Notes: a model not told the origin generated them from the sequence alone. DNA of 64,000 bases from Escherichia coli (GCF_003334815.1 NZ_QOWO01000010.1); one strand, 5' to 3'; positions 62,567-63,855 are shown, counted from the stretch's first letter. Program-made: numbers and translations.

Positions 62567-62600
62567 AGGCGCAACCTTCACGGGTTGCGCCTGTATTTTT
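62567..62600 (+). terminator. Terminator downstream of mdtK, abutting the ydhQ stop codon
   Basis: AGGCGCAACC-TTCACG-GGTTGCGCCT then GTATTTTTA. Confidence 0.75.
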
Positions 62601-63855
62601 ACGCAGGCTGGAGCGTTGCGCCAATCCCGTCTTCGTCTGGCTGTAATTTCAGAGCGTTACACAGAGTTTGCCGACTGGCATCTGTTATCTCAACGTGTAT
62701 ATCCCCGGTAACTTCCCCTTTCACATTGATGAAGTCAGGTGAAATTTCTTTTGCACTGGTTTGCAGGCAAATCGCTCCCTCTCCGCGCAGGCGTTTCACT
62801 TTCAGTTGCACATGCGTTGCCGCATCAGTGATCAGCCACAGTTTTCCACCATTCAGATTGATGTTACCAACAATGAAAGTGACACTGTCACCTTTTACCG
62901 TACTGCCGTCTAGAATCAACACACCGCCCTGCTGTACAGTAATCGTTGATTGTTGCAGCTCTGCGCCATAACCAATAATCATTGAAGCGCCGTCCAGTAA
63001 TGCAACACTCCCGGTCAGTTCAACCGGTGCGCGATCTTCCTCTACGACAAAATTTTCGTCCGCGCTGGTGGGTGACAACAGGATCACTGTCCCACCTTGT
63101 ATTACCGCGTTTTCCAGCGTACCGGCATGCACTTCAGCCCGACCACCCACATTCACGGACAGGTTTTGCGTCTTACCGGAACTGTAGAGCTGAAGGCCAT
63201 CCGTCCCCAGACGATAAATGGATCCATTCTCAACAATAGTGTCAGAGTCTTCACCACCGAGATTATTCATGGTGCCACCAGCAAGCAACGTATCACTGGC
63301 TTTCCCGGCCAGCATAAAAACGCCGCCCTGATTAATCTCACAATTGCTGGCTTCCCCACCTGGATACACCAACAATTCACCACCTTCATCTACCACGACC
63401 GCTGAGGTTGTCCCATTAACCAACAGGCCGCCCTCTTGATCGAGAATGATTTTTTCCGCGCGATGTCCTTCCAGTACACGCAGGTTACCGCCATTTTCCA
63501 GCAACAAACCGCAGGCATAACCTTTATCAACGCTGAATTCACCTTCGGGATGGCGGCCATTAACCGTAGCGAGCGTAGAGAGACTAATTGCGCCTCCCTC
63601 GGACTGAACAATATCTGTGGCAATGGCACCATCGCTGACCGATAGCGTGCCATTGTTACCGTACTGTGTGCATTTGGCGATCCCACCGGTTGCCACTTTC
63701 AACCAGCCAGCCCCCGTGACCACGGTATTTTCGGCTCTTCCGCCAGCTTCAACAATCAACTCGCCTTCAGTAAGTTGCGTCGCGCCAATGACCTCGCCGG
63801 TCTTAACAATTTGCACGTTCCCGTCGCTCATCAAGTTTTTCGCATCAGATCCCAT
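62599..63855 (-). CDS. ydhQ: Autotransporter-adhesin-like beta-helix repeat protein YdhQ (no beta-barrel domain)
   Basis: 418 aa Gly/Thr/Val-rich protein with repeated G-G-x-[AL] beta-helix-type segments; no C-terminal translocator seen. Confidence 0.8.
   Translation of the reverse strand: MGSDAKNLMSDGNVQIVKTGEVIGATQLTEGELIVEAGGRAENTVVTGAGWLKVATGGIAKCTQYGNNGTLSVSDGAIATDIVQSEGGAISLSTLATVNGRHPEGEFSVDKGYACGLLLENGGNLRVLEGHRAEKIILDQEGGLLVNGTTSAVVVDEGGELLVYPGGEASNCEINQGGVFMLAGKASDTLLAGGTMNNLGGEDSDTIVENGSIYRLGTDGLQLYSSGKTQNLSVNVGGRAEVHAGTLENAVIQGGTVILLSPTSADENFVVEEDRAPVELTGSVALLDGASMIIGYGAELQQSTITVQQGGVLILDGSTVKGDSVTFIVGNINLNGGKLWLITDAATHVQLKVKRLRGEGAICLQTSAKEISPDFINVKGEVTGDIHVEITDASRQTLCNALKLQPDEDGIGATLQPA

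Follow-up and report, generated by a model that had tools for sequence, protein, structure and literature searches.

The window, that is, the whole stretch of 64,000 nucleotides of Escherichia coli DNA (GCF_003334815.1 NZ_QOWO01000010.1) analysed here, carries ydhQ on its minus strand at positions 62599-63855. The gene is an intact, ATG-initiated open reading frame for a protein of 418 aa (42.9 kDa, pI 4.4). Our ORF list agrees in this respect with the original prediction, made from the sequence alone, which had also correctly placed the end of the window 145 bp upstream of the start codon. Using a 1.6-kb region as query, we found the locus in 5,426/5,426 complete E. coli genomes with 95-100% DNA identity; it adjoins mdtK there and is annotated as ydhQ, "AIDA repeat-containing protein", so that the gene name assigned at the outset was right. 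The ORF of the window is identical to E. coli ydhQ, and its product matches the NCBIfam equivalog NF007409 (PRK09945) with 942.5 bits against a cut-off of 830, over residues 1-418 of the 418-position model. A longer N terminus is excluded by an in-frame TAA (63859-63861, minus strand) two codons upstream of the start codon. An AGGA ribosome-binding site (63863-63866, minus strand), 8-11 nt before the ATG, is kept in all Escherichia lineages aligned; it doubles as a GGA motif of the CsrA-site type, and the 5'UTR of ydhQ is a computationally predicted CsrA target (PMC5389547). The encoded protein contains 15.1% Gly and 7.9% Thr and is strongly acidic, with 52 Asp+Glu versus 25 Lys+Arg, while its cysteine content of 1.2% compares with a median of 0.5% among 102 large homologs.

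On full contigs, the gene order is purR-punR-punC-cfa-ribE-mdtK(+), ydhQ(-), two tRNA-Val genes (+) and ydhR. ydhQ is convergent with mdtK, with only 40 bp between the two stop codons, and divergent from the tRNA-Val pair. A terminator scan placed a bidirectional intrinsic terminator hairpin at 62567-62592, common to the two convergent genes, with a stem of 10-11 bp that includes 7 G-C pairs and with T-runs on both strands. The original prediction had left aside what lies upstream of 63855, close to the end of the window. The longer contigs carry two divergently transcribed tRNA-Val genes at this place, followed by ydhR, and together with the in-frame stop this arrangement rules out an upstream partner or extension. 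No partner or secretion gene was found near ydhQ on the full contigs. An FlhDC SELEX site has been reported in the ydhQ/valV spacer (PMC9962212).

In Salmonella enterica and Enterobacter, the same tRNA-Val pair follows about 150 bp after mdtK, and neither tblastn nor blastn found a ydhQ-like sequence between mdtK and tRNA-Val in these genomes. Since mdtK is directly followed by the two tRNA-Val genes in both, ydhQ has been inserted between mdtK and valV-valW specifically in Escherichia. We rejected in-situ decay of an autotransporter common to the sister genera for the same reason. Recent horizontal transfer leaves no compositional sign either, because the GC content of ydhQ (51.4%) equals that of the window (51.0%). 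On the far side of the tRNA-Val pair, Salmonella carries type III secretion (ssa) genes, a cluster that we take to be SPI-2. Acquired DNA may thus have settled more than once at the tRNA-Val locus, although the Salmonella and Escherichia insertions are on opposite sides of the pair.

Residues 1-260 of YdhQ show a periodicity of about 17-19 residues, with multiples at 36 and 54 (z 3.6-4.0 versus 300 shuffles). Pfam assigned AIDA-repeat beta-helix rungs (PF16168) to residues 9-211 (63223-63831, minus strand) in three significant and two weak copies, the best-scoring domain spanning residues 99-159 with 79 bits, and the NCBIfam strand-loop-strand repeat TIGR04415 was matched with 43.9 bits, above its cut-off of 30. 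Towards the C terminus, a partial Pertactin/autochaperone-type junction region (PF03212) occupies residues 329-403 (62647-62871, minus strand); the match covers model positions 1-78 of 121 (E 2.5e-5) and aligns with the junction motif of complete autotransporters. Among PDB sequences, YdhQ matched the passengers of Ag43, of an AIDA-I-family adhesin and of TibA. An AlphaFold2 model built from a 20-sequence alignment is confident (mean pLDDT 91.3, pTM 0.88) and all-beta, with short strands recurring in every rung, a pLDDT of 92-98 across the AIDA-repeat rungs and a single helix of 3 residues. Disorder is predicted for residues 1-8 and for an acidic loop, ADENFVVEED (residues 265-274; 63034-63063, minus strand; pLDDT <50), whose sequence is largely invariant among YdhQ orthologs despite the low pLDDT. 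When the model was compared with the PDB by Foldseek, the top eight matches were all Ag43 or TibA passengers with probability 1.00, and the weaker ones were other beta-helices such as pertactin, IgA1 protease and UpaB; a non-beta-helical fold was not seen. The AIDA repeats, the Pertactin domain, the model and the fold search thus all agree with the passenger beta-helix of AIDA/pertactin type that had been proposed, and YdhQ is confirmed, at the level of a predicted structure, as a beta-helix of the AIDA/Ag43 passenger type.

The predicted absence of a C-terminal beta-barrel proved correct by three routes: Pfam matches of YdhQ do not include the Autotransporter beta-domain (PF03797), NCBIfam gave no match to the autotransporter barrel TIGR01414 at E<=0.01, and the AlphaFold model contains neither a beta-barrel nor a helix of more than 3 residues that would correspond to a linker. 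At the other end of the protein, a hydrophobic N-terminal segment was not found (the highest 12-residue Kyte-Doolittle mean for segments starting in residues 1-40 is 0.92), nor was a net positive N-region, the charges in residues 1-40 being balanced. This hydropathy profile and the published negative result of SignalP 6.0 (PMC13101318) both support the earlier view that YdhQ has no signal peptide. Searches with seven relatives by tblastn found no remnants of a signal-peptide region or of a barrel in the flanks of ydhQ, outside the coding sequence. We also considered two-partner secretion (type Vb), with YdhQ as a TpsA protein, and rejected it: neither Pfam nor NCBIfam found an N-terminal TPS domain, and there is no adjacent TpsB, the neighbours being mdtK and tRNA-Val.

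Searched exhaustively with HMMER, 1.84 billion cluster representatives yielded 546 relatives of YdhQ; an earlier word-indexed search had returned close orthologs only. Outside the YdhQ cluster and apart from short fragments, these relatives are almost all 1,000-6,000 aa long and about 30% identical. A close full-length, barrel-bearing relative was not found in the exhaustive search, the best complete one outside the protein's own cluster being 38% identical. Three relatives, P0137, P0173 and P0106, are both collinear with YdhQ and translocator-bearing. The C-terminal part of the passenger aligns to positions 170-396 of the YdhQ model in P0137 (978 aa) and to positions 144-394 in P0173 (916 aa), in each case with the junction motif included, and both proteins then run on into a full TIGR01414 barrel (model positions 2-432 and 3-432 of 432, respectively) that YdhQ does not have. 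Homologs with intact translocators, in which a complete barrel domain follows the YdhQ-aligned region, therefore do exist. In P0106 (771 aa), residues 72-486 are collinear with YdhQ residues 2-392 at 28% identity, and the domain order, AIDA repeats followed by Pertactin, is common to the two proteins. P0106 begins with about 70 residues that YdhQ does not have and that would correspond to the signal-peptide region, its Pertactin domain (414-538) is complete, and an Autotransporter beta-domain starts at residue 585; P0106 is itself without the end of its barrel. Its locus differs from that of ydhQ and lies between ccmH-narP and yejM-yejL-yejK-rplY, which we take to be the yejO site of E. coli K-12, P0106 hence presumably being a YejO-type autotransporter.

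Extrapolated from the P0106 alignment, the end of YdhQ falls at about residue 512 of P0106, inside the Pertactin domain and well before the barrel, and the last roughly 26 residues of that domain, its final hairpin, would be missing from YdhQ. The homology of the junction motif reaches the last residues of YdhQ in the alignment. What YdhQ keeps of a SAAT-type autotransporter is the passenger only; signal peptide, alpha-helical linker and 12-stranded barrel are absent, and the last autochaperone hairpin probably is too. The descent of YdhQ from a larger autotransporter finds support in the complete autotransporters, which are collinear with it as far as the passenger/translocator junction.

Orthologs of 418 aa with 80-90% identity are present in E. 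coli/Shigella, E. ruysiae, E. marmotae, E. whittamii and E. albertii, and a further one of 419 aa belongs to a lineage with 71% identity, whose MdtK is 95% identical to that of the window. All orthologs are 418-419 aa long, and frameshifts were not found in any of them. Synteny is kept in E. albertii, E. marmotae and the 71%-identity lineage. No ortholog outside Escherichia was found by a genome-contig scan and the word-indexed search; the contig scan used two exact peptide patterns and could miss divergent orthologs outside Escherichia, for which the exhaustive search of representatives only partly makes up. By the Nei-Gojobori method, the dN/dS of ydhQ is 0.11 versus E. albertii (dS 1.03), 0.13 versus E. 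marmotae (dS 0.78) and 0.06 versus the 71%-identity lineage. For the neighbouring mdtK, a control from the same locus, dN/dS is 0.01-0.02, so ydhQ evolves faster than its neighbour. The most constrained segment of ydhQ, residues 71-140 (63436-63645, minus strand; dN/dS 0.02 versus E. albertii and E. marmotae), overlaps both the best-scoring AIDA domain and the best Ag43 alignment. In an alignment of 7 ortholog sequences, 9/12 first residues and the cysteines C115 and C363 are invariant. Of the 5,426 E. coli genomes, only one carries a large disruption at this locus, namely an ISEcp1 insertion. ydhQ is a gene under purifying selection and not a decaying remnant.

The suggestion that YdhQ could be a remnant of a larger autotransporter is therefore to be divided: descent from such a protein stands, as collinear complete homologs exist, whereas decay does not, the 418-aa form being conserved with a dN/dS of about 0.1. 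The original prediction had also weighed the opposite case, in which homologs show the short form to be the established one and to have a defined cytoplasmic function; the short form is indeed the conserved form, and a defined cytoplasmic function did not emerge.

A motif scan located a sigma-32-like promoter, TTTAAA-N13-CACCATCT, at 63938-63964 on the minus strand, 83 nt upstream of the ydhQ ATG. With up to two mismatches allowed, TTGAAA-N13-CCCCATNT is matched nowhere else in the window; with about 2.1 such matches expected window-wide, the count is not significant, while a match would fall by chance within these particular 145 nt of the minus strand with a probability of about 2.1 x 145/128,000 (roughly 0.002). 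With a 14-nt spacer, the motif gave two unrelated matches elsewhere in the window. E. marmotae and E. whittamii retain part of the -10-like element of the putative promoter but not the -35 element, which is poorly conserved outside E. coli. Published data place the gene in the heat-shock response: ydhQ is included in a table of sigma-32 sites from ChIP-chip and alternative methods, where it was re-detected with a signal of 1.4 (PMC2996942 Table 2), it is part of an RpoH regulon list (PMC2710865), and it rises with heat-shock genes upon scFv misfolding (PMC2868799). We infer that the site at 63938-63964 is the sigma-32 promoter of ydhQ; the window-wide count and the poor conservation of the -35 element speak against this part of our reading.

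The protein is made by the cell. YdhQ has been quantified in whole-cell proteomics, in which it dropped 5.5-fold with vanillin (PMC6561319), and it co-purified with EF-Tu (PMC2672614). A study based on UV cross-linking and organic phase separation (OOPS) names it among 17 previously unannotated RNA-binding candidates (bioRxiv 10.1101/2023.07.03.547468). A ydhQ deletion has been used as a neutral 'parental' background and the locus as a neutral integration site (bioRxiv 10.1101/2023.03.28.534373); as deletion strains serve as neutral backgrounds, the deletion has no obvious laboratory phenotype. A 2026 study (PMC13101318) treated YdhQ as an autotransporter anchor for surface display. In that work, a pFAST-YdhQ fusion without signal peptide was fluorescent and cytosolic, and an exogenous signal peptide on YdhQ raised reporter activity, which was read as surface display. 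The negative signal-peptide prediction and the cytosolic fusion of that study accord with our own results. Display of the construct with the added signal peptide is hard to reconcile with the absent barrel, and since the main text of the study makes no mention of proteinase K, trypsin or antibody, periplasmic accumulation or leakage is a possible alternative. Secretion of native YdhQ by another route, the second option of the original prediction, is unlikely given the membership in the sigma-32 regulon and the cytosolic location of the fusion without signal peptide.

We consider it likely that the product of ydhQ is a former autotransporter passenger that has been retained as a beta-helix protein of the cytoplasm and is induced by stress. 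This reading joins our own results on architecture, fold, missing export parts, conservation, selection and lineage restriction with sigma-32 regulation, expression, the cytosolic fusion, EF-Tu co-purification and RNA cross-linking, which are taken from the literature. The gene would have been inserted between mdtK and valV-valW in an Escherichia ancestor, after the split from Salmonella and Enterobacter. Its product, without a signal peptide, would not enter the Sec pathway and, without a barrel, would not cross the outer membrane; it would therefore fold and stay in the cytoplasm as a soluble acidic beta-helix. The higher cysteine content fits a protein that no longer crosses the periplasm unfolded, given that autotransporter passengers are generally cysteine-poor. 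Since its insertion, purifying selection would have maintained the gene as a separate transcription unit that has a putative sigma-32 promoter and its own terminator, and the native protein would be active in the cytoplasm during proteotoxic stress. Most plausibly, it may serve there as a scaffold for binding, in contact with translation or RNA-associated components. This last step is the weakest one: EF-Tu is a common co-purification contaminant, and a pI of 4.4 is unusual for a direct RNA binder. That YdhQ is a domesticated passenger which, induced by heat shock, binds client proteins or ribonucleoprotein complexes in proteotoxic stress is put forward only as a tentative and rather doubtful proposal. 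Its role would be holdase-like or that of a scaffold, conceivably toward unsecreted autotransporter precursors or translation factors.

An adhesin or biofilm factor that still reaches the surface in some other manner, by lysis, in vesicles or through another system, appears to us an improbable description of YdhQ. One article states second-hand, citing Roux 2005, that ydhQ is needed for early adhesion (PMC9110714); YdhQ is listed among extracellular-vesicle-associated COG3468 proteins (PMC10458587); and ydhQ was flagged in a published positive-selection scan. These three observations, like the neutral deletion, also count against the cytoplasmic reading, the vesicle listing and the selection scan being more typical of surface proteins. 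A surface location could further draw on the higher reporter activity obtained with an exogenous signal peptide (PMC13101318) and on the closest structural relatives, Ag43 and TibA, which are self-associating adhesins. It has to contend, however, with a protein that has no signal peptide, barrel, TPS domain or nearby secretion gene, with a cysteine content above that of real passengers and with the place of ydhQ in the sigma-32 regulon. In the very study that claims display, moreover, the native-type fusion was cytosolic, and the claim is based on reporter activity alone (PMC13101318). We attach a similarly low probability to YdhQ being an RNA- or translation-associated protein in its own right, with the beta-helix re-used as a ribonucleoprotein-binding surface. 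Its listing as one of 17 RNA-binding candidates in the OOPS study and its co-purification with EF-Tu speak in favour of this, whereas its strongly acidic character argues against direct RNA binding and no known RNA-binding domain was found by Pfam or NCBIfam; the RNA and EF-Tu data sets are, besides, high-throughput ones, and the accessible text of these sources reports no follow-up of YdhQ.

Less probable than either is that ydhQ is a non-functional leftover, a pseudogene-like fragment that is still open and expressed. The protein is indeed a fragment of a larger architecture, deletion of the gene is without obvious laboratory phenotype and its locus serves as a neutral integration site. At the yejO locus, P0106 is likewise without the end of its barrel, and other decayed autotransporter genes are present in E. 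coli. The selection analysis nevertheless largely refutes this idea, with a dN/dS of about 0.1 at a dS of about 1. The length of the protein is preserved in every Escherichia lineage sampled, together with most of its first 12 residues, the locus was found in all 5,426 genomes with one large disruption only, and the gene has a dedicated putative promoter and a terminator. Each of these three explanations, by surface adhesion, RNA binding or decay, is less well supported than a cytoplasmic role under proteotoxic stress.

Annotation and literature already cover ydhQ and its odd architecture; the gene is not a discovery and does not define a new kind of system. It is a core Escherichia gene that is often labelled 'autotransporter adhesin', and the present analysis corrects this common mislabel, since the product of ydhQ is probably a cytoplasmic beta-helix, under selection and regulated by heat shock, rather than an adhesin. 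Some caution is due, in that biofilm or positive-selection results for ydhQ should not presume a surface location. The question is thereby sharpened to the role of a cytoplasmic Ag43-like beta-helix during heat shock. A domesticated YdhQ, if true, would exemplify something rare, the intracellular re-use of a secreted, virulence-type fold.

Among known systems, Ag43, AIDA-I and TibA have the same repeat type and fold as YdhQ. Positions 249-456 of the NCBIfam model of Ag43 align to YdhQ residues 25-230, and the AIDA-I-family adhesin 7ko9 has about 50% local identity to residues 26-141; YdhQ remains below the SAAT family cut-offs of 1200, with 88.8 bits for NF033177 (Ag43) and 54.2 bits for NF033176 (AIDA-I). 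These three proteins are surface adhesins and possess signal peptide, complete autochaperone, linker and barrel, whereas YdhQ is without these export parts, is sigma-32 regulated according to published work and appears cytosolic. A second comparison is offered by the disrupted autotransporter genes of E. coli K-12, ydbA, yaiT, ycgH and yejO, which are interrupted by IS elements or frameshifts and annotated as pseudogenes. Like ydhQ, they are autotransporter-derived and have no working full architecture; unlike them, ydhQ is an uninterrupted ORF that is under selection, fixed in length and regulated on its own.

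The convergent neighbours mdtK (61185-62558, + strand) and ydhQ (62599-63855, - strand) evolve at very different rates. Measured against Escherichia albertii, dN is 0.013 for MdtK and 0.112 for YdhQ, and in the most divergent Escherichia lineage compared, MdtK retains 95% identity whereas YdhQ retains 71%. The stop codons of the two genes are separated by a 40-bp gap, within which lies one G+C-rich hairpin (62567-62592) with T-runs on both strands; by its sequence, this hairpin looks like a bidirectional terminator common to mdtK and ydhQ.

Upstream of the ydhQ coding region, a block of the 5'UTR, TAGCCTTTACACTTAG (63896-63911, - strand), is near-invariant across all aligned Escherichia lineages, with one base changed in the 71%-identity lineage. 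GGA motifs also occur in this 5'UTR, and CsrA is predicted to target ydhQ (PMC5389547). Taken together, the conserved block, the GGA motifs and the CsrA prediction suggest that ydhQ is under post-transcriptional control. Elsewhere in the window, when the spacer of the sigma-32 consensus was set to 14 nt, the motif scan retrieved matches at 88-115 (- strand) and 10778-10805 (+ strand), each with two mismatches; this count of two in the whole window is at chance level.

Among 5,426 complete genomes, the sole large disruption of the ydhQ locus is found in E. coli AR_0013 (contig L002, 5200-8117), where an ISEcp1 transposase interrupts the gene, leaving two halves annotated as pseudogenes. In E. 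coli E1433, whose contig L001 matches window positions 62400-64000 at 100% identity, IS100 (IS21-family istA/istB) interrupts ydhS (L001 8460-12023), three genes past the window end.

The collinear reference for YdhQ, the 771-aa autotransporter P0106, is encoded at 5001-7316 of contigs L019/L020, which we take to be the YejO locus. P0106 may itself be truncated at the C-terminus, since its barrel matches the models only in part, covering positions 1-192 of 255 in the Pfam model and 2-357 of 432 in TIGR01414.

In Salmonella enterica, SPI-2-like type III secretion genes (contig L021, 6514-11362; ssaU/T/S/R/Q-type Pfam families) come after valV-valW, the tRNA-Val pair next to which ydhQ lies in Escherichia. 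The ssa genes in Salmonella and ydhQ in Escherichia are therefore two distinct lineage-specific insertions, adjoining valV-valW on opposite sides.
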